NCBI GenBank assembly: GCA_016720065.1
Contig: JADJXY010000002.1
Span: 2,520,316 to 2,584,315 of the forward strand
DNA from: Betaproteobacteria bacterium
GTDB taxonomy: Bacteria > Pseudomonadota > Gammaproteobacteria > Burkholderiales > Rhodocyclaceae
Direction: 5' to 3'
Length of the DNA: 64,000 bases
Each line of letters starts with the position of its first letter. Position 1 is the first letter of the stretch. Of this stretch, positions 2,583 through 36,921 are shown piece by piece. The notes beneath the pieces are model-generated. The model did not search any database and was not told where the DNA came from. It was given only the letters and a program-made list of their open reading frames with translations. Position numbers and translations under genes: made by a program.

Positions 2583-3929
2583 CTAGCCCGCCAGACGTTC
2601 GAGGATTTTCCCGTGGATGCCACCAAAACCGCCGTTGCTCATGACGAGAATCTGGTCACCCGAGCGGGCCTCGGCGACGATGCGCGCCACCAGGCGGTCG
2701 AGGTCGTCTTCCACCACCGCCTTGGCCCCCAGGGGGGCCAAGGCCTCGGCGGCGTCCCAGCCCAGCTTGGCGCCGTAACAGAAGACGGCGTCGGCGTCGG
2801 TCAAGCTACCGGGGAGGGCGGACTTCATCACCCCCAGCTTCATGGTGTTGGAGCGCGGTTCCAGCACGGCCAGGATGCGCGCCCGGCCCACCTTGCGGCG
2901 CAGACCGGCGACGGTTGTGGCGATGGCCGTGGGGTGGTGGGCAAAATCGTCGTAGACCGTGACGCCCCTTACTTCACCCCGGACCTCCATGCGGCGCTTG
3001 ACGTTCACAAAGCGGGAAAGCGCCTCCAATCCCTTGTCGAGGGGCACCCCCACATGGCGGGCGGCGAGCAGGGCGGCGCAGGCGTTGGCCCGGTTATGGT
3101 CGCCGGTGAGGGTCCAGGTGCTGCGCCCGATTTCGCCTTCGCCATCAGACAGGAGGAGCGCCCCGTCCGCATCATCGCCGCCGGTGCGGTAGCCCTCGGG
3201 GTCGTTGAACCACTCCACGGGGGTCCAGCAGCCCCGGGCCAGCACACGTTTCAAGCTCTCCTCGGCAGCGTTGGCGACAATCAGGCCGGAAGGCGGCAGA
3301 GTCCGCACCAGATGATGGAATTGCGTCTCTATGGCGGCGAGATCGGCGAAGATATCCGCATGATCGAACTCCAGGTTGTTCAACACCACGGTGCGCGGCC
3401 GGTAATGGATGAACTTGGAACGCTTGTCGCAGAAGGCGGTGTCGTATTCGTCGGCCTCGATGACGAAGAAGGGCGTGCCGCCCAGCCGGGCAGAGACGCC
3501 GAAGTTCATGGGCACACCGCCGATGAGGAAGCCCGGGTCCATGCCCGCGTCCTCCAGAATCCAGGCCAGCATCGAACTGGTGGTGGTCTTGCCGTGGGTA
3601 CCCCCCACCCCCAGCACCCAGCGTCCCTGCAGCACGTTTTCCGCCAGCCACTGCGGGCCGGAAACGTAGCTCAGGCCCTGGTCGAGAACGGCCTCCAAAA
3701 GCGCATTGCCGCGGGAAATGGCGTTGCCGACGACGAAGACATCCGGTTTGAGCGCCAACTGATCGACGCCGTAACCTTCGATGAGATCGACGCCCGCCCC
3801 CCGCAACTGGTCGCTCATGGGCGGATAGACGTTGGCGTCGCAGCCGGTGACGCGGTGGCCGGCAGCCCGGGCCAGTTGGGCGATGCCGCCCATGAAGGTG
3901 CCGCAGATACCGAGAATATGAATGTGCAT
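2583..3929 (-). CDS. mpl: UDP-N-acetylmuramate:L-alanyl-gamma-D-glutamyl-meso-diaminopimelate ligase (murein peptide ligase)
   Basis: MHIHILGICGTFMGG N-terminus matches Mpl, Mur ligase fold. Start chosen at MHIHIL (3929); in-frame alternatives at 3944 and 3992. Confidence 0.85.
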   Translation of the reverse strand: MHIHILGICGTFMGGIAQLARAAGHRVTGCDANVYPPMSDQLRGAGVDLIEGYGVDQLALKPDVFVVGNAISRGNALLEAVLDQGLSYVSGPQWLAENVLQGRWVLGVGGTHGKTTTSSMLAWILEDAGMDPGFLIGGVPMNFGVSARLGGTPFFVIEADEYDTAFCDKRSKFIHYRPRTVVLNNLEFDHADIFADLAAIETQFHHLVRTLPPSGLIVANAAEESLKRVLARGCWTPVEWFNDPEGYRTGGDDADGALLLSDGEGEIGRSTWTLTGDHNRANACAALLAARHVGVPLDKGLEALSRFVNVKRRMEVRGEVRGVTVYDDFAHHPTAIATTVAGLRRKVGRARILAVLEPRSNTMKLGVMKSALPGSLTDADAVFCYGAKLGWDAAEALAPLGAKAVVEDDLDRLVARIVAEARSGDQILVMSNGGFGGIHGKILERLAG

Positions 3930-3980
3930 GTCGGGAAAGGCCATTAGAATGGCCCGGATTCTACTCGACGGAGCGCATCC

Positions 3981-4580
3981 ATGCCCCGCCACGATTCACC
4001 CCGTCAGGCCTCTGGCGCCAGAGCCAGCATTGCGGCCGCGGCCGCCCGCCTCATGGCCGAAGACGGCATCACCGACTTCCACCTTGCCAAGAAGAAGGCC
4101 GCCCGGCAATTGGGGCTACCCGATAACACCGCTTTTCCCGACAACGCCGAGGTCGAGGAAGAACTCCGGGCCTACCGCAGCCTTTACCAGGACGAAGAAC
4201 ACACCGAACTGCTGCATGGCCTGCGGGAAACCGCCCTGGATCTCATGGAACTCCTGGCCGACTACCGCCCCTATCTGACCGGTTCCGTCCTCGACGGCAC
4301 CGCTGGCCCCCACTCCCGCATCGACATCCTGCTCTTCGCCGACAGCGCCAAGGAGGTGGAAATCTTCCTCCTCAACCACGGCATCGACTACGACCATGCC
4401 GAGCCCCGCAACGAGAAGGCAGAAGCCGTGCTGGTCGTGGGCACCGAGGTGGCGGATGCCAATCTGATCGTTTTCCCCCCCTCCTTCGAGCGCATGAGTT
4501 TCAAGACCCGCGACGGACGCCCCCGGCCGCGCGCCCGGGCCGACGAGCTTGCGGTCTTGCTGGGCGGTTCCGCAGCGTGA
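3981..4580 (+). CDS. Conserved hypothetical protein
   Basis: 199-aa ORF divergent from mpl, stop overlaps the next gene start (ATGA at 4577). No confident family assignment from sequence alone. Confidence 0.45.
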   Translation: MPRHDSPRQASGARASIAAAAARLMAEDGITDFHLAKKKAARQLGLPDNTAFPDNAEVEEELRAYRSLYQDEEHTELLHGLRETALDLMELLADYRPYLTGSVLDGTAGPHSRIDILLFADSAKEVEIFLLNHGIDYDHAEPRNEKAEAVLVVGTEVADANLIVFPPSFERMSFKTRDGRPRPRARADELAVLLGGSAA

Positions 4581-5110
4581 TTTCGCGGCGCGCCTTCCTC
4601 ACCCTCGGCATTCCGCTGGCCCTGGGGGGTGGTCTGGCGGGCGTTCTCGTGGCACGCCGCCGCCGGGGCCAGCCCGAGGCGAGCCCTGATGCCGCCGCCT
4701 TGTTGGCGGCCCAGACCTTTATGGATATGGAAGGCCGCCCCATCCGCATCGCCGACTGGCGGGGCCACCCGGTGCTGGTCAATTTCTGGGCCACCTGGTG
4801 CCCGCCTTGCCTGGAAGAAATCCCCGGATTCACCCGGGTGCAGGGGCGCCACCCCGAGGCGAAAATCCTGGGCATCGCCCTTGATCGTGTGGAAAACGTC
4901 CGGCAAATGGCGGGTAAATTGGCGATAAATTACCCCCTGGCCGCGGGCGGGACCGAGACCACCGCACTGCTCAAGGCCCTGGGCAATCCGGGCAAGGCCC
5001 TCCCCTTCACCGTAGCCCTCGACCCCTCCGGAAACTTGCGCAAGCGGCGCCTGGGAATCCTGAGCGAGCAGGAGGCCGAGACCTGGCTCCTGGGGCTGGC
5101 AAACCCCTGA
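4577..5110 (+). CDS. TlpA-like thiol:disulfide interchange protein (thioredoxin fold)
   Basis: Signal/TM N-terminus, WATWCPPC active-site motif, thioredoxin-like length. Confidence 0.8.
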
Positions 5111-27822: not shown

Positions 27823-28839
27823 TCAGACCAGAAACACCCGAACGCGACCTTCGGCCTCCTCAAACCCGAAGCGCGCCGGAAGGAATTTTGCGATCACCGC
27901 GCAATTGGTCCTGGAGTGGGACGAGAGGGCGGAAGTCGTGAAACTCGCCGCCCCTCCGGCCAGAGCCAGCGGCAGCAACAACTGATCCGCCAGATGTTCG
28001 CCCACGGCGGCGCCGCTTTCGCGGTAGCGCCGGGCCTCCCGGGCGGCACGGTCGGCCACCGTTTCCGCCGGTACGCCACGGGCGCCGAAGGCAGAAAAGA
28101 CCTCCGTCACCCCGGGATACTCCAGAACCAGCATCAGGACGTTACCCGGCCCCTCGCCGTGGGGCAGCACCCGGAGCTCTTCGTCGAGGGGGCCCAGCAT
28201 GCTTGCGGCCCGCTGCATCTCGCGCTTGGCCACTTCGGCGGGCACGCCCGCCACCACGCCGATGGCGCTCGTGCGCCGCAACGCCCCCCGCGCGTCCAGT
28301 CGCAGGGGCTGCCAGGCTTTCACCGGGCCAGTGCGCGCCATCAGTTCGCCGCCACCCGCCGGGTAGAAACCGTGGCGCAGCAATTCGATATCCAGGGACA
28401 CCCCCATGGTCCGCAGCAGCGGCTGCCAACTGCGGATGAGAAAGTCGGCCGGGGGAGCGGCCGGATTGTGCGTCCCGCCGCTCACCCACAGGGTGCTGGG
28501 GCCTTCGGCAAACCACAGGGCCGGTAACACCGTTTGCAGCACCAGGGTGCAACTCCCGGCTGATCCGATGGCGAAGCGATAGTCTCCTGCCCGCACAGGC
28601 CCCGGCTGGAAGCGCAGGCGCAGGGATCCCGGCGCCGCGCCGTCCACCCTGGCCCCGCACACCGCCGCCGCAGCCTGCACGGCGGTCAGGTGCTGCCGCA
28701 GGAGGCCGGACTTCCCGCGCCCGGCGCGGATGCGCTCGATGGCGAAGGGGATGCCGGTAATCATCGACAGGCTGAGGGCGGTGCGCAGAATCTGCCCCCC
28801 GCCCTCGCCCTGGGAACCATCCAGTTCGATCCAGTCCAT
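27823..28839 (-). CDS. rtcA: RNA 3'-terminal phosphate cyclase
   Basis: 338 aa; RtcA family motifs and the adenylylated His region (…HLAD…); last gene of the rtc operon. Confidence 0.9.
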   Translation of the reverse strand: MDWIELDGSQGEGGGQILRTALSLSMITGIPFAIERIRAGRGKSGLLRQHLTAVQAAAAVCGARVDGAAPGSLRLRFQPGPVRAGDYRFAIGSAGSCTLVLQTVLPALWFAEGPSTLWVSGGTHNPAAPPADFLIRSWQPLLRTMGVSLDIELLRHGFYPAGGGELMARTGPVKAWQPLRLDARGALRRTSAIGVVAGVPAEVAKREMQRAASMLGPLDEELRVLPHGEGPGNVLMLVLEYPGVTEVFSAFGARGVPAETVADRAAREARRYRESGAAVGEHLADQLLLPLALAGGAASFTTSALSSHSRTNCAVIAKFLPARFGFEEAEGRVRVFLV

Positions 28840-28860: not shown

Positions 28861-29679
28861 TCAGGACACCGCCAGTACCGTGCGCAGCAGAAAGGCGTCG
28901 AGTTCCGTCCCATCACCTTCCGGTTTCTTGTAGTCCGCATCCACCGGCGTTCGTGCCAGTTCATTGTCGATGAAGGCGTGGATATTTGGCCAACGCGCGC
29001 TGTATTCAGCCTCAGCGACGCTCATCTTGATCGCCAAGAGCGCGTTGATCTCGTCCAGCAACGCCACATCCGTCACCAGGGCCTCGGCCAGATCGGCAAA
29101 GCGCATGGGCGGCTGGCCCAGGCCGCACTCGATCCATTTCGCCGCCAGCAAGGGGCGAAGGACGTAAAGGTATTTCTTCAAGCGCACGTTTTCGCCTTGC
29201 AGATAGCTGCGAAAATTGCGGCGGGCCATGGACAGATAGTGATGGCGCCCACGCTTCGGGGAAAACCATTGGGCCGCGAAGTCGCGAAGTCCTGAGGTCA
29301 GCTCAGGGTCTTCCCGATATATCACCGGAGAATCCAGCCACTCGAGCAACACCGGATTGGCACGGCGCAATAGGCGCAGCGCCTTGCGCAATTCCCAGCC
29401 CCCCACGTCCAGTTCATCGCTGATCGGCAATTCGATCACGTCCCGCCTCGGTTCCACCGTCAGATACCAGGGCAGTCGGTGCACATAGAGAAAACGCACG
29501 TCGTAATCGCTATCGGGTGAGGCAAAGCCCCAGCCCCGACTGCCAGATTCACAGGCGTACAGCACCACCACATGGTGCTCTGCCTCGATGTCAGCGAGGG
29601 CCTGCATGACGCGCTTGCGCACCCCGGAGTCAATGGGGTGTGCACTCAGCACCTTGTTTCTCTCGCGCGAATCACTCAT
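28861..29679 (-). CDS. Predicted nucleotidyltransferase (Pol-beta superfamily, RtcB-associated PF10127-like)
   Basis: N-terminal GS...D.D motif (ESGSRGWGFASPDSDYDVRF) of minimal nucleotidyltransferases; 272 aa; inserted between rtcB and rtcA with 3-21 nt gaps. Confidence 0.7.
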   Translation of the reverse strand: MSDSRERNKVLSAHPIDSGVRKRVMQALADIEAEHHVVVLYACESGSRGWGFASPDSDYDVRFLYVHRLPWYLTVEPRRDVIELPISDELDVGGWELRKALRLLRRANPVLLEWLDSPVIYREDPELTSGLRDFAAQWFSPKRGRHHYLSMARRNFRSYLQGENVRLKKYLYVLRPLLAAKWIECGLGQPPMRFADLAEALVTDVALLDEINALLAIKMSVAEAEYSARWPNIHAFIDNELARTPVDADYKKPEGDGTELDAFLLRTVLAVS

Positions 29680-29682
29680 CGC

Positions 29683-30957
29683 TCACCCTTTCACGCACAC
29701 CACCTGCCGCAAGGTATGCACCACCGCCACCAGCTCGCGCTGGGCGTGCATCACGGCATCGATGTCCTTGTAGGCCATGGGGATTTCGTCGATGACTTCG
29801 CTGTCCTTGCGGCATTCGACGTGGGCGGTGGCCCTGATCTGGTCGTCCACGGTGAAGCGGCGCCGGGCCTCGTTGCGGCTCATGGCACGGCCGGCGCCGT
29901 GGCTGCAGGAGCAGAACGACTCTTCGTTGCCCAGGCCGCGCACGATGTAGCTGCGGGCGCCCATGGATCCCGGGATGATGCCGAGTTCGCCTTTCCTGGC
30001 CGACACGGCCCCCTTGCGGGTGACCAGCACCTCGGCGCCGAAGTGGGTTTCGCGCTGGACGTAGTTGTGGTGGCAGTTCACCGCCTCCACGTCGGCCGTG
30101 AAGGGCTTGGCGATGATGCGGCGGGCAGCGGCGACCACATGGCCCATCATCACGTCGCGGTTGCGGCGGGCGTAATCCTGCGCCCAGCCGACGGCTTCAA
30201 CGTAATCGGCAAAGTGCTCCGATCCTTCCTCGAAGTAGGCGAGATCCTTGTCCGGCAGATTGGCGATGTGCTGGCGCATGTCGGCCTGGGCCAGTTCGAT
30301 GAACAGGCTGCCGATGGCGTTGCCCACCCCGCGGGAGCCCGAGTGCAGCATGAACCAGACCCGGTCGGCCTCGTCCAGGCAGACTTCGATGAAGTGGTTG
30401 CCGGTACCCAGGGTTCCCAGATGCTTGTGGTTATTGGTGTTCTTGAGGCGCGGGTACTTCTCGGCGATGCGCCGGAAGCCCGGCAGCAGGGCCGACCACA
30501 GGGCGTCCACGGTCTCCGGCGGGGTTTCCCAGGCGCCCTTGTCGCGGCGGCTCTGGCGCGGCGGCGTGCGTCCGTGGGGCACCGCGACCTCGATGGCCGA
30601 ACGCAGGCCGTGCAGGCTGTCCGGCAGGTCGGCGGCAGTGAGCGTGGTGCGGGCGGCCATCATGCCGCAACCGATATCGACCCCCACCGCCGCCGGGATG
30701 ATCGCCCCTTGCGTGGGAATCACGCTGCCGATGGTGGATCCCTTGCCCAGATGGACGTCCGGCATCACCGCCAGGTGACGGAAGATGAACGGCAGGCTGG
30801 CCGTGTTCATCAATTGCTTGCGTGCCTCTTCCTCCACCGGGACGCCTTCGGTCCACAGCTTGATCGGCTTGCCCCGGGGCACTTCCTGAGTCTGGTAGGT
30901 CATGGTCTTTCCTTTCTTGCCGCTGCGCCATGCCAAGCGCCGCGGCCAAATTCTCAT
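29683..30957 (-). CDS. rtcB: RNA-splicing ligase RtcB (3'-phosphate/5'-hydroxyl RNA ligase)
   Basis: 424 aa, full-length RtcB similarity including metal-binding His/Cys residues and GTP-binding/guanylylated His region. Confidence 0.95.
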   Translation of the reverse strand: MRIWPRRLAWRSGKKGKTMTYQTQEVPRGKPIKLWTEGVPVEEEARKQLMNTASLPFIFRHLAVMPDVHLGKGSTIGSVIPTQGAIIPAAVGVDIGCGMMAARTTLTAADLPDSLHGLRSAIEVAVPHGRTPPRQSRRDKGAWETPPETVDALWSALLPGFRRIAEKYPRLKNTNNHKHLGTLGTGNHFIEVCLDEADRVWFMLHSGSRGVGNAIGSLFIELAQADMRQHIANLPDKDLAYFEEGSEHFADYVEAVGWAQDYARRNRDVMMGHVVAAARRIIAKPFTADVEAVNCHHNYVQRETHFGAEVLVTRKGAVSARKGELGIIPGSMGARSYIVRGLGNEESFCSCSHGAGRAMSRNEARRRFTVDDQIRATAHVECRKDSEVIDEIPMAYKDIDAVMHAQRELVAVVHTLRQVVCVKG

Positions 30958-30964
30958 TGCATTA

Positions 30965-31387
30965 TCAGGCGCGGGCGGCCATCACGGCCAGACGCGCCTG
31001 CTTCTTCAGCAAGCCGGCCAGCGCTGCCTGCCGGGCCTGCTCCTTGCGCTGCCGCTCGCGCTGACGGCAGGCGCAGCAGCGTTTGGCGCCGGCGTACTGG
31101 GAACCGCCGGCGCATTCGTACCACCAGCGCTGGCGCTCGGCGGTCCATACGCACTGCGCCCCACAATCGCAGCAGGTGAAGGGCTGATCGAGGTAGTAGC
31201 CCCGCTCGGCAAAAGCGCTGCGGCCATAGCTGTTATTCGCCATCAGCCGGCCGTAGTCCACCGACACGGCCCTTCCCTCGGCGAACAAGGGGGGCTCGGG
31301 ATGCCGCCGATTCTCCGCCTGACGCCGCTCCCGCCGGGCCGCCTTGATCTCGGCCCGGCGCTGCTTTCCACTCCTGTAGCCTTCCAT
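30965..31387 (-). CDS. Basic Cys-rich zinc-ribbon-like protein (hypothetical), rtc-operon encoded
   Basis: 140 aa; Arg/Lys-rich N- and C-termini; Cys cluster FTCCDCGAQCVW...YECAGG...KRCCACRQ; 7 nt from rtcB and 45 nt from the slipin gene. Confidence 0.55.
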   Translation of the reverse strand: MEGYRSGKQRRAEIKAARRERRQAENRRHPEPPLFAEGRAVSVDYGRLMANNSYGRSAFAERGYYLDQPFTCCDCGAQCVWTAERQRWWYECAGGSQYAGAKRCCACRQRERQRKEQARQAALAGLLKKQARLAVMAARA

Positions 31388-31432: not shown

Positions 31433-32569
31433 TTACTTCGCCAGGGTCACCAGGCCATTGAGCACCTGGTCGAGGCCCCCGAAGACCGAGATGCGGTCGA
31501 TGCGCTCGGCCACCCGCTCCAGGGTTTCCAGTTCCTTCAAACGCAGGGCAACCGGGTTGTCTTCCATCACCTTGGCCGTATTGAGCAACGAACGGGTCGC
31601 CGCCGTTTCTTCGCGCCGACGGATCACGTTCGCTTCGGCGGCCTTGCCCGCCTGCACCACCTGGGCCAGGATGGCCTTCATCTCGCCCGGCAGCACGATG
31701 TCCTTGACCCCGACGCCGCCGATCTCCAGGCCGAAGCCCGCCAGTTTCCGGGCGACGTGGGCGCTCACCGCCTCGTCGATGAGCTGCTTGTTTTCCAGCA
31801 GTTCGTCCAGATTGCGCGTTCCCACCGCCGCCCGCAGGCCGAATTGCAACTCGCGGTAGAGGTGTTCGGCCGGCTTGGCCAGGCGGGCGAAGGCGGTGCT
31901 GACGTCCTCGAAGCGCCAGGTGGCGGCGAGGTTGAGGCGCAGCGCCACCTTGTCGCGGGTGAGGATTTCCTGGCCGCTCACTTCGAGGGACTGCCAGCGC
32001 ATATCCACCAGGTCCACCTGAAGATCACGGTTGAAGCGCCAGTAGGCGGTCACCCCCGGTGCCAGCAGAGGCTGCTGCACGCCGTCGAGCCGCAGCACGC
32101 CGACGTGGGCCGCTGGCACCTGCACGACGAGAACACCGTTCAATCCGAGCACCGGGCGGCCGCGCAGGGCGGGTTGCAAGAGGCGCTTCACCATTGCCCC
32201 CGGCAGCGCGGCGCCCGCGCCCAGATCGAGCTTTTCCAGGCGCTGCGCCACCCCGCCGCGCCAGAAGATGCGGCGGGAAGCCGGGGGCAGCATTTCGACC
32301 AGAACCTCGTTCTCGTAGCGCAGCCCGACTTCGTCCTCGCTCATCTCCATCCACAGGAAGTGGCGTTCTGCCTCGGCCGGATCGTTGCGGCGCAGGGTAT
32401 CGACCAGATCGGTATCCGGCATCGGCGTGTCGGTCTGCCACAGGGCCAGCGACAGCTCGTTGAGCAGGTCGAACCGATAGTGGCGGCCCGGATCGAGGAT
32501 GCACTCGAAGTCGCCGTTTCGCAGCAGGGCGGCCCGTTGGTTCTTCTTCACGATGAAACGCTTCAACAT
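31433..32569 (-). CDS. SPFH/band-7 (stomatin/prohibitin/flotillin-like, slipin) domain protein
   Basis: 378 aa with SPFH core (…GVKDIVLPGEMKAILAQVVQAGKAAEANVIRRREETAATRSLLNTAKVME…); GGGAG RBS. Confidence 0.8.
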   Translation of the reverse strand: MLKRFIVKKNQRAALLRNGDFECILDPGRHYRFDLLNELSLALWQTDTPMPDTDLVDTLRRNDPAEAERHFLWMEMSEDEVGLRYENEVLVEMLPPASRRIFWRGGVAQRLEKLDLGAGAALPGAMVKRLLQPALRGRPVLGLNGVLVVQVPAAHVGVLRLDGVQQPLLAPGVTAYWRFNRDLQVDLVDMRWQSLEVSGQEILTRDKVALRLNLAATWRFEDVSTAFARLAKPAEHLYRELQFGLRAAVGTRNLDELLENKQLIDEAVSAHVARKLAGFGLEIGGVGVKDIVLPGEMKAILAQVVQAGKAAEANVIRRREETAATRSLLNTAKVMEDNPVALRLKELETLERVAERIDRISVFGGLDQVLNGLVTLAK

Positions 32570-32861
32570 GTTCTGCTCCCTTCAATTGCAAATGTCTTCG
32601 TCAACAGCGACGGCTCAACTTGCCGGCTTACGCCGGTCCGGCGGGCACCGTGCCGGGCTCCGGCGGGGGAGCCCCCGGACGGGAGGACGGGGCTGGCGGC
32701 GACCCCTGGCACCGTTGCCAAGGCCGCGCGGCCACTGCCGCCCGACACCGGAGGCCCTGCCGCCGAAGCGAAGCGAAGCGCCGGGCCGAACCGGCGGCGG
32801 GTGCTTGCGCATTCCGCAGCCGGCGGGCACTGCAAAATTCACTGTCGTGAAAGACAGTTCT

Positions 32862-32938
32862 GGAGCGGGATTCGAACCCGCGACCGACCGTTTACAAGAC
32901 GGCTGCTCTACCCGATTGAGCTATCCACAGGTGGGGTT
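32862..32938 (-). tRNA. tRNA-Thr(UGU)-like element with imperfect acceptor stem (possible pseudo-tRNA or tRNA mimic)
   Basis: Minus-strand sequence has D-arm TAGCTCAATCGGGTAGAGC, anticodon stem-loop GCCGT-CTTGTAA-ACGGT (UGU) and T-arm GCGGG-TTCGAAT-CCCGC. Acceptor 3' strand TCCAGAA pairs with only 5/7 of the 5' strand, and no CCA is encoded. Confidence 0.5.
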
Positions 32939-33100
32939 CCGGGAATCGGACCCGGGCGTGCCACCAGGCACCCCGATATCGCTTTCCCGCGACGGCGGCA
33001 TACGGCGGAGCAACCGGAGGATTCCTGACTCCACCGCACCGGCGGGGATGCGATCCCCTGACCCGTCGGCCCTGCCGCAAGTCGGCGATGGCTTCCCTAA

Positions 33101-33117
33101 CGCGAAAGCCGTGCCAG
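33101..33117 (-). promoter_or_regulatory. Candidate sigma54 (-24/-12) promoter for the rtc operon
   Basis: Minus-strand cTGGCACggctttcGCg (GG-N10-GC spacing) ~150 nt divergent from the rtcR start and ~165 nt upstream of the tRNA-like element; -12 region is a weak match to TTGCA. Confidence 0.35.
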
Positions 33118-33266
33118 CCCAAGCAGGCAACCGCAACTCACTGATTTAAAGCTGTTTCGCCAATTCCACCCGGCAAGGTGGCCGAATTATGTGATTTCTC
33201 TGTATAGTCACTTATAAATTTATATACATCGCGATTCGCCGACCAGCGCAACACAGCCAAGCCTCC

Positions 33267-34883
33267 ATGAAAAAAACTGTCGTGATCGGCTTTCTCGGCA
33301 CCCAGCTCGACTACGCCGGCAAGGGCACGGCACGCTGGGACCGGTGGCGGCCCACCGTGGCCCTGTGCCAGCAGGAAAGCCTGCTCGTCCATCGCCTCGA
33401 GGTGATCCACGACCTGCGCAGCCGGAGCCTCGCCGAACGGGTGGGCAACGACATCGCCCGCATTGCGCCGGAGACCGAGTTCAAGCGGGTGGAAATGGAA
33501 CTGCGCGACCCCTGGGATTTCGAGGAGGTCTATACCGCGCTGCACGACTTCGCCCGCGGCTACGCCTTCGATCCGGAAAATGAGGAATACCTCATCCACA
33601 TCACCACCGGCACCCACGTCGCGCAGATCTGCTGGTTCCTGCTCGCCGAGGCGCATTACCTGCCGGCCCGCCTGCTCCAGACGTCGCCGCCGCGCAAAAA
33701 GGATGTCGCCGACAGCATCGGCGGATACGAGATCATCGATCTCGATCTGTCGCGCTATGACCGCATCGCCCAGCGCTTTGCCCGGGAACGCGACGACAGC
33801 GTCTCCTTCCTCAAGTCGGGGATCGCCACGCGCAATCCAGGGTTCAACCGCATGATCGAACAGATCGAGCACGTGGCCGGCCGCTCGCGCGCCCCCATGC
33901 TCCTGGTCGGCCCCACGGGGGCGGGCAAGTCCTTCCTTGCCCGGCGGGTCTTTGAACTCAAGCGCCAGCGGCAGGCATTGACGGGGCGCTTCGTCGAAGT
34001 CAATTGCGCCACCCTGCGCGGCGATTCCGCCATGTCCGCCCTGTTCGGCCACAGCAAGGGCGCCTTCACCGGCGCCCAGCAGGAGCGGCCGGGCCTGCTG
34101 CGGTCCGCCGACGGCGGCCTGCTCTTTCTCGATGAAATCGGCGAACTCGGCCTCGACGAGCAAGCCATGCTGCTCAAGGCCATCGAGGAAAAGCGCTTCT
34201 TTCCCTTCGGCAGCGACCAGGAAGCCAGCAGCGATTTCCAGTTGATCGCCGGCACCCATCGCGACCTGCGCCAGTGGGTGCGCCAGGGCAGGTTCCGCGC
34301 AGACCTCTACGCCCGCATCAACCTATGGACCTTCGACCTGCCGGGCCTCGCCGGCCGGCCCGAGGACATCGAGCCCAATCTCGACTACGAACTGGAACGC
34401 TTCGCCGCCGATCACGGCCAACGGGTGCGCTTCAACAGCGAGGCGCGGCGGCGCTACCTCGCCTTCGCCACCTCGGCCGCAGCGCGCTGGCACGGCAATT
34501 TCCGCGAACTCGGCGCCTCACTGACCCGCCTCGCCACCCTGGCCGCCGCCGGACGCATCACCGAGCCCGACGTGGCCGACGAAATCGCCCGACTCACCGC
34601 CACCTGGGCTGAGGAGCCGAGCGGCGACGCCAGCGCGGAAATCCTTGGCGCCGACGCGGAAGCCCTCGACCTCTTCGATCGCAGCCAGTTGAACACCGTG
34701 ATCGCCGTCTGCCGCGCCAGCGTCAGCCTGTCCGAGGCCGGTCGCCGCCTGTTCGCCGTCTCCCGGGCGGAAAAGAAGCAGCGCAACGATGCCGACCGCC
34801 TGCGCAAGTACCTGGCCCGCTTCGGCCTCACCTTCGACACGCTGCGCAAACCCGCCGCGAGCGCCCGGCAAGTTCCTTCATGA
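33267..34883 (+). CDS. rtcR: Sigma54-dependent transcriptional regulator RtcR (CARF domain + AAA+ sigma54-activation domain + HTH)
   Basis: 538 aa; N-terminal CARF-like domain typical of RtcR, central Walker A GPTGAGKS, GAFTGA motif (HSKGAFTGAQ), ESELFGH-like region; divergent from the rtcBA operon. Confidence 0.9.
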   Translation: MKKTVVIGFLGTQLDYAGKGTARWDRWRPTVALCQQESLLVHRLEVIHDLRSRSLAERVGNDIARIAPETEFKRVEMELRDPWDFEEVYTALHDFARGYAFDPENEEYLIHITTGTHVAQICWFLLAEAHYLPARLLQTSPPRKKDVADSIGGYEIIDLDLSRYDRIAQRFARERDDSVSFLKSGIATRNPGFNRMIEQIEHVAGRSRAPMLLVGPTGAGKSFLARRVFELKRQRQALTGRFVEVNCATLRGDSAMSALFGHSKGAFTGAQQERPGLLRSADGGLLFLDEIGELGLDEQAMLLKAIEEKRFFPFGSDQEASSDFQLIAGTHRDLRQWVRQGRFRADLYARINLWTFDLPGLAGRPEDIEPNLDYELERFAADHGQRVRFNSEARRRYLAFATSAAARWHGNFRELGASLTRLATLAAAGRITEPDVADEIARLTATWAEEPSGDASAEILGADAEALDLFDRSQLNTVIAVCRASVSLSEAGRRLFAVSRAEKKQRNDADRLRKYLARFGLTFDTLRKPAASARQVPS

Positions 34884-36832
34884 GCGGTTTCGTGGCGTTC
34901 GCCGGCGCGCCCCCTCCCGGGTATCATTTCACCCCCCTCTCGGACACCGCCATGAGAACTTCCCCCGACCTCGACTGGTACAACGCCGTCGAACATCTCT
35001 GCCACGCTTCTGCCGGCCACCTCCTGGCCGGCATCGCGTTTCCCGAATTCCGCAACCGGGTGGAACTGCTGGTGGGGCCGCTCTTCGACCAGCTTCCCCT
35101 GGGACAGGCGGCCCGCGTGCCGGAAATCATTCGCGCCCTCGCCACCCAGGCGGCCCTGGAAATCTGGAACGCCACGCCGATTCCGGCCAATCGCTTCCGC
35201 CCGCTGAAAATCGCCAAGCCGGAGCGCAACGCGCCCTGCCCCTGCGCCTCCGGCCGCAAGTACAAGCAGTGCTGCGGTGCTGTCCCGCCCCCGAGCCTGG
35301 GCATCCGGGAGGAAACGATGCTCGCCCAGGTCATCGCGCACTGGCCGAGAAAGCGGCTGGGCGAACTGCCCCTGGCGGAGCTTCATCCCGAAAGCCTCGC
35401 CCTGGTCGCGCTGGACTGGCAGGAAGAGGGCAGCGACATGGACGCCATCGCGCTGCTGGAAGCCCTCTTCACCCATCTGCCCAAACTCGACGGCCGCGCA
35501 GAACACGCGGCGGACGTTCTCCTCGACCTCTACGGGGACGGCAGCAAATCGCGCAAGAAGCTGGCCTTTCTCGAACAACTCAAGGCGGCTCCCGACAAGA
35601 CCCTGCGCTCGACCGCCTGGCAGCGCCAGGCCACGCTGGCCTGCGACCGCGGCGAGGTGACCGCCGCCTGGGCAGCCTTTGGCGAAGCCCAGCGCCTGAC
35701 CCCCAACGCCCCTGCCCTCTCGCACCTCGAAGTGCTGCTCCTGCTCAGCGAGGGTCGGCGCACCGAGGCCAGGGCCCGGGCCGATTTCTGGTGCGCCCGC
35801 CTGGCCCGCGACGGCAAGTTCGACCACAGCAGCCTTATCGACACCCTGCGCGACATGGTCTCCGACGACGACGAAGCCCGCCTGCGCAACCTCGCCCTCA
35901 TGGACGATCCCCTGGGCGACGTAGCCGACATTTCCGGCGACTGGACGGCCCCCGCCTGCCATTACACCCTGGCCGGGGGCGCGGTCCTGCAGGCCAAGGC
36001 TCCCCTGGCCCGCGTCGAGAAGGCCTGGGACGAAGCCTTCGACCCCCATGACCCGGAGTCTGACGGCTGGATCGATCTGCTGGAAGACGAGCCTCTCGCT
36101 GCCCAATCCTTCCTGGTCTTGCGCGATCTGGTCGAGTGGGCGCTGGACATCCCGACCATGCCCCCGGGAGGCAATATTGTCCTGGCGTGGAAACTGCTCG
36201 AGCGGGCCGAGGCGCTTCGCCGCACGGTCCTCGCCCGCCTCAAGGCCGAAGACCGCGAACTTCCCTGGGGCCACCTCGAAAACCGCCCCCTGCTCACCCT
36301 GGCCGCCATTCGGGTCACGGAATTTGCCAACCGCAATCCGGAGGAGACCCTGGAACTCCTGCGCTGGTCGGTCCTCGTCGCCAACCCCAACGACAACACG
36401 GGACTGCGCGAAATCCTGATTCACCGCCTGGCCGCCGAGGGTCACGGTGGTGAAGCCGTGGCGATCGCCGAACGCTATCCGCATGACCTGGCCTTCGTCG
36501 ATTATGGGCGTGTCCTTGCCTACCACGCCGCCGGGCGTCTGGACGAAGCCGCCGTAGCCCTCTCCCAGGCCATCACGCGCTGGCCCAAGGTGTGGCAGAC
36601 CCTCAATGCCGCCAGACCGCGCAAGCCCAAGCTCGAATTCATGGGATTTTGCTCCGGCGGCGACGACGAAGCCTGGATTTACCGCGAGGAGCGCCTGGAG
36701 CAGTGGCGCCAGAGCGGCGCCCTGCGCTGGGCCGTCGGGCTGAAGGTCGCCCAGCCCCCCGCCCGGCAGTCGTCCCGCAGGAAGCGCGTTGCCGTCCCCA
36801 CGCAGGCGGAACTTCCCGGACTGGACGACTGA
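34880..36832 (+). CDS. SEC-C metal-binding motif protein (hypothetical), translationally coupled to rtcR
   Basis: 650 aa; SEC-C/YecA-type zinc motif NAPCPCASGRKYKQCCG; start ATG overlaps the rtcR stop (ATGA at 34880-34883). Confidence 0.6.
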   Translation: MSGFVAFAGAPPPGYHFTPLSDTAMRTSPDLDWYNAVEHLCHASAGHLLAGIAFPEFRNRVELLVGPLFDQLPLGQAARVPEIIRALATQAALEIWNATPIPANRFRPLKIAKPERNAPCPCASGRKYKQCCGAVPPPSLGIREETMLAQVIAHWPRKRLGELPLAELHPESLALVALDWQEEGSDMDAIALLEALFTHLPKLDGRAEHAADVLLDLYGDGSKSRKKLAFLEQLKAAPDKTLRSTAWQRQATLACDRGEVTAAWAAFGEAQRLTPNAPALSHLEVLLLLSEGRRTEARARADFWCARLARDGKFDHSSLIDTLRDMVSDDDEARLRNLALMDDPLGDVADISGDWTAPACHYTLAGGAVLQAKAPLARVEKAWDEAFDPHDPESDGWIDLLEDEPLAAQSFLVLRDLVEWALDIPTMPPGGNIVLAWKLLERAEALRRTVLARLKAEDRELPWGHLENRPLLTLAAIRVTEFANRNPEETLELLRWSVLVANPNDNTGLREILIHRLAAEGHGGEAVAIAERYPHDLAFVDYGRVLAYHAAGRLDEAAVALSQAITRWPKVWQTLNAARPRKPKLEFMGFCSGGDDEAWIYREERLEQWRQSGALRWAVGLKVAQPPARQSSRRKRVAVPTQAELPGLDD

Positions 36833-36921
36833 GCGCCGGTGAAAATTCCCTTCGACGGGACGCAGGTGGGGCATGTCGAAGGAAGCGCGGATGTTCAGCG
36901 GTCCTCTACTCGGCTGCCAGG

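Follow-up and report, generated by a model that had tools for sequence, protein, structure and literature searches.

A probable non-decoding tRNA-like RNA of the b7a class upstream of the Band_7 gene in an RtcB repair operon of Rhodocyclaceae

The closest described RNAs

A band 7-associated tRNA-like RNA, termed b7a-tRNA, was reportedly predicted by Burroughs and Aravind in Nucleic Acids Research in 2016. Here we describe an element of this kind on the minus strand of a 64,000-nucleotide (nt) stretch of DNA from a betaproteobacterium of the family Rhodocyclaceae (contig JADJXY010000002.1; the whole stretch is hereafter called the window), where a cloverleaf with the anticodon-like loop CUUGUAA, referred to below as module 2, precedes the gene of an SPFH/Band_7 protein in an RNA repair operon. 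That some bacteria encode the RNA ligase RtcB beside a Band-7 protein has been noted by Wang et al. (bioRxiv 10.1101/312249), who credit the prediction of b7a-tRNA to the 2016 work and characterize this RNA as strongly resembling real tRNA, as maybe redundant with the Y RNA YrlA and as not validated experimentally. Measured by this account the window element is alike in that it adjoins Band-7/SPFH and RtcB genes and resembles an authentic tRNA: Band_7 lies 288 nt downstream on the same strand with RtcB two genes further, the cloverleaf is called by a tRNA finder, and it is homologous to elements found in the same position elsewhere. The element belongs to this already predicted class and is very probably a non-decoding tRNA mimic of the b7a type.

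A second described relative is PA4581.1 of Pseudomonas aeruginosa, which is annotated as tRNA-Arg4, lies between rtcR (PA4581) and PA4582, is without CCA and has an atypical D loop and atypical identity positions (PMC13637947, 2026). In strain PAO1 it has been detected by quantitative reverse transcription PCR (qRT-PCR; PMC13637947). PA4581.1 is an orthologue of the window element, as it occupies the same place between rtcR and the Band-7 gene and likewise lacks CCA, and the Pseudomonas loci of our comparison bear the orthologous element. It differs from the window element in its ACG-type "anticodon" and is annotated as a tRNA gene.

Similarities also extend to YrlA (RF02553; PMC4201824), which stems from RtcR-controlled rtcBA loci, is non-decoding and has a ring- or cage-forming protein as its partner, and whose D arm (UAGCUCA..GGUAGAGC) and T arm (GCGGG-UUCGA..-CCCGC) have almost the same sequence as in the window element. 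However, YrlA's tRNA-like domain is circularly permuted, with the anticodon-stem position extending into the Ro60-binding helix, whereas module 2 and a smaller tRNA-like module directly upstream of it (module 1) are non-permuted. In addition, the window operon genes that were scanned do not include rsr, as no TROVE domain (rsr/Ro60) was found in the ten open reading frames (ORFs) searched with Pfam. A covariance comparison with the Y RNA model, which had been suggested in a preliminary description of the element made from the sequence by eye, gave a partial match of 21.9 bits (gathering score 69); this match covers the module-1 T arm together with the module-2 D arm, and its "acceptor hairpin" is left mostly unpaired. 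Membership in the YrlA/Y RNA family was rejected on account of this sub-threshold score and because the acceptor stem of each module covaries on its own instead of the permuted hairpin.

Structure and conservation of module 2

Module 2 is the sole tRNA that ARAGORN calls within the 64-kb window, as tRNA-Thr(tgt) at 32857-32930 on the minus strand. The Rfam tRNA model RF00005 matches the same interval and strand with 57.7 bits (E=7.7e-10; gathering score 29), a score inside the range of the canonical tRNAs in one related locus (48.7-64.5 bits). Read from the sequence, the element is composed of a D arm UAGCUCAAUCGGGUAGAGC, an anticodon arm GCCGU-CUUGUAA-ACGGU, a variable loop CGGUC and a T arm GCGGG-UUCGAAU-CCCGC, and it shows the tRNA hallmarks U33, A37, U8, A14, D-loop GG and T-loop UUCGAAU. 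In the acceptor, CUGUGGA faces UCCAGAA with five of seven positions paired and with C1·A72 and G3·G70 mismatched, and exactly these two pairs, 1:72 and 3:70, are marked as non-standard by the Rfam model. Unlike a canonical elongator tRNA-Thr(UGU), module 2 is therefore without a full stem of seven base pairs (bp); its effective acceptor stem has 4 bp, formed by UGGA (32927-32924) with UCCA (32864-32861). CCA is not encoded; C-UGUC comes next and the 3' side runs into a conserved hairpin. In E. coli, identity for threonyl-tRNA synthetase (ThrRS) requires G1-C72 and C2-G71; where these pairs would sit, module 2 has C1·A72 and U2-A71.

These results bear out the preliminary description in so far as it had reported a minus-strand tRNA-Thr(UGU)-like cloverleaf with these D, anticodon and T arms, the same five-of-seven acceptor pairing and no encoded CCA; the check by ARAGORN and a tRNA model that it had proposed does call a tRNA-Thr, yet confirms the acceptor mismatches. 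Its coordinates, 32862-32938, located the element correctly but missed the ends by 5-8 nt, taking in 8 nt of the upstream module and leaving out the last 5 nt.

The element recurs at the same position in related loci. Starting from an alignment of Band_7 homologues we collected 80 loci, one genome per species, which include Rhodocyclaceae, Accumulibacter, Gallionellaceae, Thiobacillus, Pseudomonas, Burkholderia, Ralstonia and Roseateles, and searched the 77 that had enough upstream DNA with ARAGORN and a motif scan. A homologous tRNA-like element is present on the Band_7 strand in 75 of these 77 loci and ends about 230-400 nt before the start codon, and module 2 shares with these same-position elements the near-invariant signature UGGA-UAGCUCA...GGUAGAGC...GCGGGUUCGAnUCCCGC-UCCA. 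RtcB is found in 74 of the 80 loci, RtcR in 64, RtcA in 41, RlaP in 36 and the zinc-finger protein TBCL in 31, and 66 of the 75 sequences have a sigma54 motif with up to one mismatch, placed 100-260 nt upstream of the element. The two exceptions are a Paraburkholderia locus (L076) with a variant element whose D stem is altered, and a Parachitinimonas locus (L074) with a reduced variant that comprises only the T arm and part of the body; RtcB was not detected in the latter locus.

The association holds both ways, since the protein-first comparison and an RNA-first scan agree. For the latter, the strict signature UGGA-UAGCUCA…UAGAGC…GGUUCGAnUCCCGC-UCCA was searched against metagenome contigs and gave at least 120 matches. 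Among the matches listed, at least 113 are of the b7a type with incomplete outer acceptor pairing. Seven listed matches have all three outer acceptor pairs and none of them a detectable Band_7; four of these seven, with enough downstream DNA, are ordinary tRNAs (e.g. GGCUGGA…UCCAGCC-A-CCA). By comparison, a Band_7 homologue follows on the same strand in 84 of the 86 listed matches with at least 700 nt of downstream DNA, and in none of these 86 members are all three outer pairs present. The short acceptor stem thus cleanly separates the class from real tRNAs that have the same arms. A scan of viral contigs for phage carriage of the strict module-2 signature returned zero matches.

What, then, is under selection in module 2? 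Pair statistics were taken from an alignment of the 33 members that have a 7-nt anticodon-like loop. In these the D stem is 100% invariant, both the T stem and the anticodon stem are 100% paired, and each of the five anticodon-stem pairs shows compensatory change. Pairing is equally complete (100%) in the acceptor at 4-7:66-69, switches from G5-C68 to C5-G68 included, whereas the outer pairs 1:72, 2:71 and 3:70 form in 12%, 33% and 48% of the sequences, respectively, which is about the level expected by chance. Because the outer pairs form at an essentially random rate across members, the two mismatches in the window are typical of the family; the acceptor "defect" of the preliminary description is real as an observation but is no sign of a lesion.

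The anticodon-like loop, by contrast, is hypervariable. Only 33 of the 75 genome sequences have a 7-nt loop, and these bear 14 distinct triplets; the other 42 have longer stems capped by GNRA tetraloops (GAAA, GCAA, GCGA), by cUUCGg or by other short loops. Orthologues with near-identical bodies carry CAU, AAG, AAU, GAU or tetraloops, so that, unlike in a canonical tRNA-Thr(UGU), the "anticodon" is not conserved among orthologues, and within the 7-nt loops the frame C32-U33...R37-A38 is retained. Among the ten closest relatives the per-site divergence is 0 for the D stem, 0.02 for the T stem and 0.04 for the anticodon stem, but 0.39 for the triplet and 0.47 for N73. Taken together, the positions that carry tRNA identity (anticodon, 1:72 to 3:70 and N73) are the least constrained and the tRNA body is the most constrained part of the element. 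A possible pairing of the anticodon-like loop with the leader near the ribosome-binding site, seen by eye as a six-of-seven match, was discarded as a chance match because L009, the closest relative with the same loop, does not have it.

The upstream module, the leader and the operon

Module 2 is directly abutted by module 1 (32929-32974, minus strand), which was recognized from weak partial matches to mascRNA and YrlA and by RNAalifold. It consists of an acceptor GGGGU/ACCCC, a D-like hairpin GCC-UGGU-GGC and a T arm CCGGG-UCCGAUU-CCCGG and is without an anticodon arm. RNAalifold with 38 sequences yields a 7-bp acceptor and a 5-bp T stem, in which 10 of 12 pairs show compensatory changes. In the window the acceptor is followed by the discriminator A32932 and CCU, in many relatives by CCA: N-CCA follows module 1 in 26 of the 75 genome loci and stands at the junction of the two modules in at least 42 of the 86 metagenome members (among the matches listed), and 102 of 105 listed metagenome matches have a module-1 T loop no more than 70 nt upstream of module 2. 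The last two bases (C, A) of this CCA are at the same time "positions 1 and 2" of module 2. The outer positions 1-3 of module 2 do not pair because they belong to the 3' tail of module 1, and the tail A-CCU of the window accounts for the 5' strand CUG-UGGA. The core layout is hence a module 1 with a 7-bp acceptor, often ending in N-CCA, one nucleotide from the cloverleaf of module 2 with its 4-bp acceptor, and the universal unit comprises two tRNA mimics in tandem with Band_7 after them.

In its combination of acceptor, T arm and reduced D element without an anticodon arm, module 1 resembles the tRNA-like domain of tmRNA and mini RNAs of the mascRNA type, and many of its relatives share with these an N-CCA end. 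Unlike tmRNA it is without the conserved G3·U70 and without an mRNA-like part, and its Rfam scores are far under the respective thresholds (7.9 versus 47 for tmRNA and 18.6 versus 42.5 for mascRNA). In most Pseudomonas loci module 1 is a full cloverleaf rather than the mini form of the window, which is why ARAGORN calls two abutting "tRNAs" there. The locus of a Pseudomonas metagenome-assembled genome (MAG; L064, ~2225-2297) has a single hybrid module, in which the module-1 5' acceptor strand is joined to the module-2 body, as a deletion between tandem tRNA-like repeats would give.

In the RtcR-linked clade both modules sit within a covarying leader of ~490 nt (~0.5 kb) that matches no Rfam family but tRNA. 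The stretch of ~530 nt from promoter to ATG shows 82% mean column identity among Rhodocyclaceae. At its 5' end lies a three-way-junction RNA (32976-33090, minus strand), for which RNAalifold with 48 sequences gives 25 pairs, 18 of them compensatory, with switches from G-C to A-U in the conserved junction included; its junction strands GGCCsACGrG, GCyGGUGC and GyAUGCCGCC are near-invariant and its hairpins covary. Directly 3' of module 2 follows the hairpin CUGUC-UUUCAC-GACAG (32842-32857, minus strand), whose stem covaries across loci (UGUCC/GACAG, UGCCC/GGCAG, UGGCC/GCCAA, CCAGCC/GCUGG); it was considered as an intrinsic terminator, which is ruled out by the lack of a U-tract. The 3' domain (32621-32833, minus strand) opens with the near-invariant GCAGUrCCCGCCGG (32833-32820), a motif kept in Rhodocyclales, Pseudomonas and Burkholderia, continues with a GCAA-capped hairpin and a long closed rod and terminates in ...CCGGACCGGCG-UAA-GCCGGCA about 50 nt before the start codon; here RNAalifold with 26 sequences gives 41 pairs, 27 of them compensatory, long-range helices included. 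A small ORF of 90 amino acids within this domain (32563-32835, minus strand) has no Pfam match, and we treat it as non-coding because indels in close relatives do not preserve its frame.

The distribution of the two flanking domains is narrower than that of the modules. In the genome set their sequence motifs are found in the RtcR-linked loci, and in metagenomes in only about 13-16 of about 105 members among the matches listed; the 5' domain motif also occurs in most of the Roseateles-type loci, which are without RtcR. Beyond the RtcR-linked loci the two domains may have diverged past our motif patterns. At the Rfam gathering thresholds, scans covering the window and ten related loci left the leader domains unmatched and found tRNA only, plus a distant thiamine pyrophosphate (TPP) riboswitch, and an E-value scan of 32500-33300 returned only the sub-threshold YrlA partial match and noise (mascRNA, tmRNA and plastid UTR families). 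The TPP riboswitch aptamer (RF00059; 23205-23294, plus strand; 64.7 bits versus a gathering score of 54.3) is unrelated to the rtc locus.

The leader is preceded by a sigma54-type promoter, TGGCAC-N5-TCGC (33102-33116, minus strand), read from the sequence as TGGCACGGCTTTCGC (33116-33102) with the GG of the -24 element at 33115-33114 and the GC of the -12 element at 33103-33102. Module 2 begins 172 nt downstream of this promoter. The element had been placed between this promoter and the slipin gene, which is correct, but not "immediately" behind the promoter, as about 172 nt of structured RNA lie between the two. The first gene after the RNA encodes the SPFH/Band_7 ("slipin") protein of 378 amino acids (31433-32569, minus strand, start codon at 32569; Pfam PF01145, E=2.8e-27). 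This protein is 100% identical to a protein of an Azonexus sp. MAG, its homologues retain the full length, and the nearest solved structures are stomatins. It is followed on the minus strand by the treble-clef zinc-finger protein TBCL (zf_Tbcl, 30965-31387; PF13451, E=2.7e-8), the RNA ligase RtcB (29683-30957; PF01139, E=1.2e-128), the nucleotidyltransferase RlaP (28861-29679; PF10127, E=1.1e-93) and the RNA 3'-phosphate cyclase RtcA (27823-28839; PF01137 and PF05189), in the operon order Band_7(SPFH)–TBCL–RtcB–RlaP–RtcA. RlaP extends damaged 3' ends of RNA by one or two nucleotides (PMC12776372). An intrinsic-terminator-like site was sought between module 2 and Band_7 and none was found, and the RNA and the operon genes therefore appear to form one transcription unit. 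Divergent from the operon lies the gene of RtcR (33267-34883, plus strand), an activator that combines a CARF domain (PF06956, E=5.1e-86) with a sigma54-interaction AAA+ domain (PF00158, E=3.2e-49). Downstream of rtcR two long ORFs overlap on opposite strands, one of 650 amino acids with a SEC-C motif (34880-36832, plus strand) and one of 806 amino acids without a Pfam match (34454-36874, minus strand).

A group of Roseateles/Burkholderiales-type loci (L070, L043, L053, L056, L067, L071 and L079) is organized differently, being without RtcR and without the sigma54 motif. In most of them same-strand canonical tRNA genes lie 0.8-2 kb upstream of the tandem modules and Band_7; L070 has an array of nine (3713-4886). 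These tRNA-bearing loci may be tRNA supply-and-repair islands.

Function of the RNA and alternative readings

The best explanation overall, and a likely one, is that the window encodes a non-decoding tRNA-shaped RNA upstream of a cytoplasmic SPFH/Band-7 protein, as part of an RtcB repair operon. The leader of ~490 nt with both modules would be transcribed from the RtcR/sigma54 promoter along with Band_7–TBCL–RtcB–RlaP–RtcA, and the element would present a tRNA-like body to proteins that recognize tRNA shape, that is, RtcB, RtcA, RlaP and/or the SPFH scaffold and the TBCL zinc finger. Such partners are suggested by the fact that the selected feature is the tRNA body with its elbow. Rather than carry an amino acid to the ribosome, the RNA would serve the repair system as a cofactor or scaffold, as YrlA does with Ro60. 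This specific role is proposed tentatively and by analogy, and its prospects of being correct are perhaps a little short of even. The preliminary description had already put forward a dedicated tRNA mimic akin to the modules that Y RNAs carry in rtc/rsr loci, and our comparative data and the published b7a-tRNA prediction agree with this notion; the decoy, RtcR ligand or substrate mimic that it named would be possible roles of such an RNA. In the accessible b7a-tRNA literature we find no mention of the 4-bp acceptor, of the hypervariable or tetraloop-capped "anticodon", of the CCA-tailed upstream module or of the 5' and 3' leader domains. The 4-bp acceptor signature, the tetraloop variants, the CCA-tailed upstream module and the large covarying leader may thus go beyond what is known of b7a-tRNA.

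Several points weigh against this explanation. The definition of the b7a-tRNA class is taken second-hand from 10.1101/312249, and the mechanism proposed for this organism is drawn from genomic context. In P. aeruginosa the level of PA4581.1 is unchanged upon induction of the Rtc proteins (PMC13637947), which fits poorly with simple co-induction, although qRT-PCR of a tRNA-like RNA is a weak assay. The conserved frame C32-U33...R37-A38 hints at an interaction specific to the anticodon loop, which a pure scaffold would not need. Finally, since the RNA is always located 5' of Band_7 in the same orientation and no terminator separates the two, its role may be purely cis-acting.

But could the element simply be a tRNA, intact or decayed? 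A genuine if unusual tRNA-Thr(UGU) used in translation would explain why its score of 57.7 bits is within the canonical range of 48.7-64.5, why U33, A37, U8, A14, the D-loop GG and the T-loop UUCGAAU are present and why the PAO1 orthologue is annotated as a tRNA. It would not account for close orthologues that combine near-identical bodies with CAU, AAG, AAU, GAU or tetraloops, nor for an outer acceptor that is unpaired family-wide. In the window 1:72 and 3:70 are mismatched, C1·A72 and U2-A71 stand in place of the ThrRS identity pairs, the 3' side enters a conserved hairpin directly in place of a CCA, positions 1-2 overlap with the CCA tail of the upstream module, and the element is part of an mRNA leader that follows a stress-induced sigma54 promoter. 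We consider this reading hardly credible, and the same is true for a decaying pseudogene or the remnant of a mobile-element attachment site. The two acceptor mismatches and the lack of CCA would be in line with decay, but purifying selection acts strongly on the two arms (D and T) and on the inner acceptor, with a D stem that is invariant and a T stem that is 100% paired across the orders sampled, and compensatory changes have occurred at all five pairs of the anticodon stem and at 5:68 (G-C to C-G). Moreover, 75 of 77 genome loci keep the position, as do the Band_7-linked metagenome matches among those listed, and no integrase or direct repeat was noticed beside the element, though no specific search was made for them. 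Both alternatives, which the preliminary description had left standing, are contradicted by the conservation pattern.

Two further readings concern what the RNA does rather than what it is, and both are compatible with the non-decoding mimic proposed here rather than exclusive of it. The modules and the 5' and 3' domains might act only on the operon mRNA, either as RNase P/Z/E signals that set its 5' end or stability or as an autoregulatory platform that tunes translation of Band_7 and RtcB. Such a cis-acting leader would be consistent with the invariable location of the RNA on the Band_7 strand, 200-690 nt upstream of that gene's start codon, with the absence of a terminator-like site between module 2 and the gene, with a covarying 3' domain that reaches to about 50 nt before the start codon and with the 82% mean column identity from promoter to ATG in Rhodocyclaceae. 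However, the predicted helices leave out the Shine-Dalgarno region, which falls in an A-rich stretch without structure, the universal core in metagenomes is the tandem pair while the flanking motifs occur in only about 13-16 of about 105 members (among the matches listed), and the related YrlA works in trans; a purely cis-acting role is therefore rather improbable in our view. Less probable still is that the RNA is a sentinel or bait, whose loop is cut by anticodon nucleases (toxins, colicins or phage-triggered enzymes) to give halves with a 2',3'-cyclic phosphate or a nicked tRNA-like RNA, a product that would feed the CARF domain of RtcR and so amplify induction, or which soaks up the nuclease as a decoy. 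RtcR is indeed activated by tRNA halves or nicked tRNAs with a cyclic phosphate end (PMC7790460; see also PMC10159003), the triplet evolves fastest while the loop frame C32-U33...R37-A38 is kept, as would fit an arms-race diversification, and the authors of the YrlA work proposed a competitive-inhibitor role for its tRNA-like domain. Then again, 42 of the 75 sequences of the genome set are without a 7-nt loop and have tetraloops or other short loops unable to mimic one of an anticodon, the Roseateles-type loci and most of the metagenome matches listed have neither RtcR nor the sigma54 motif, and Salmonella YrlA is not cut by the RecA-dependent nuclease. In addition, because the RNA lies downstream of the RtcR-dependent promoter, a bait could amplify an induction under way but not start one.

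A more far-reaching version of the non-decoding mimic, which we regard as speculative and on balance unlikely, is that the annotated "tRNA" is just the most conspicuous piece of a bigger dedicated RNA and that the tandem-mimic core, in the RtcR-linked clade within a four-domain RNA of ~490 nt, is the RNA subunit of an SPFH-cage RNA-repair ribonucleoprotein, the hypervariable loop being a specificity or bait module that tracks local anticodon nucleases. If true, such a particle would be a bacterial counterpart of Ro/Y-RNA or vault/vault-RNA particles.

Because the scores of b7a elements resemble those of real tRNAs, annotation records them as tRNA genes; the present one would be named tRNA-Thr, and the P. 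aeruginosa orthologue is named tRNA-Arg4. Annotations of this sort inflate tRNA counts and mislead analyses of codon usage and of tRNA-linked regulation. The invariant elbow, the 4-bp acceptor, the anticodon arm with its variable loop or tetraloop, the CCA-tailed mini-tRNA and the leader domains provide concrete features to be tested in the SPFH/Band-7 branch of RtcB systems. Pseudomonas and Burkholderia are tractable hosts, and work in these could show whether tRNA mimics are cofactors, decoys or sensors in bacterial RNA repair.

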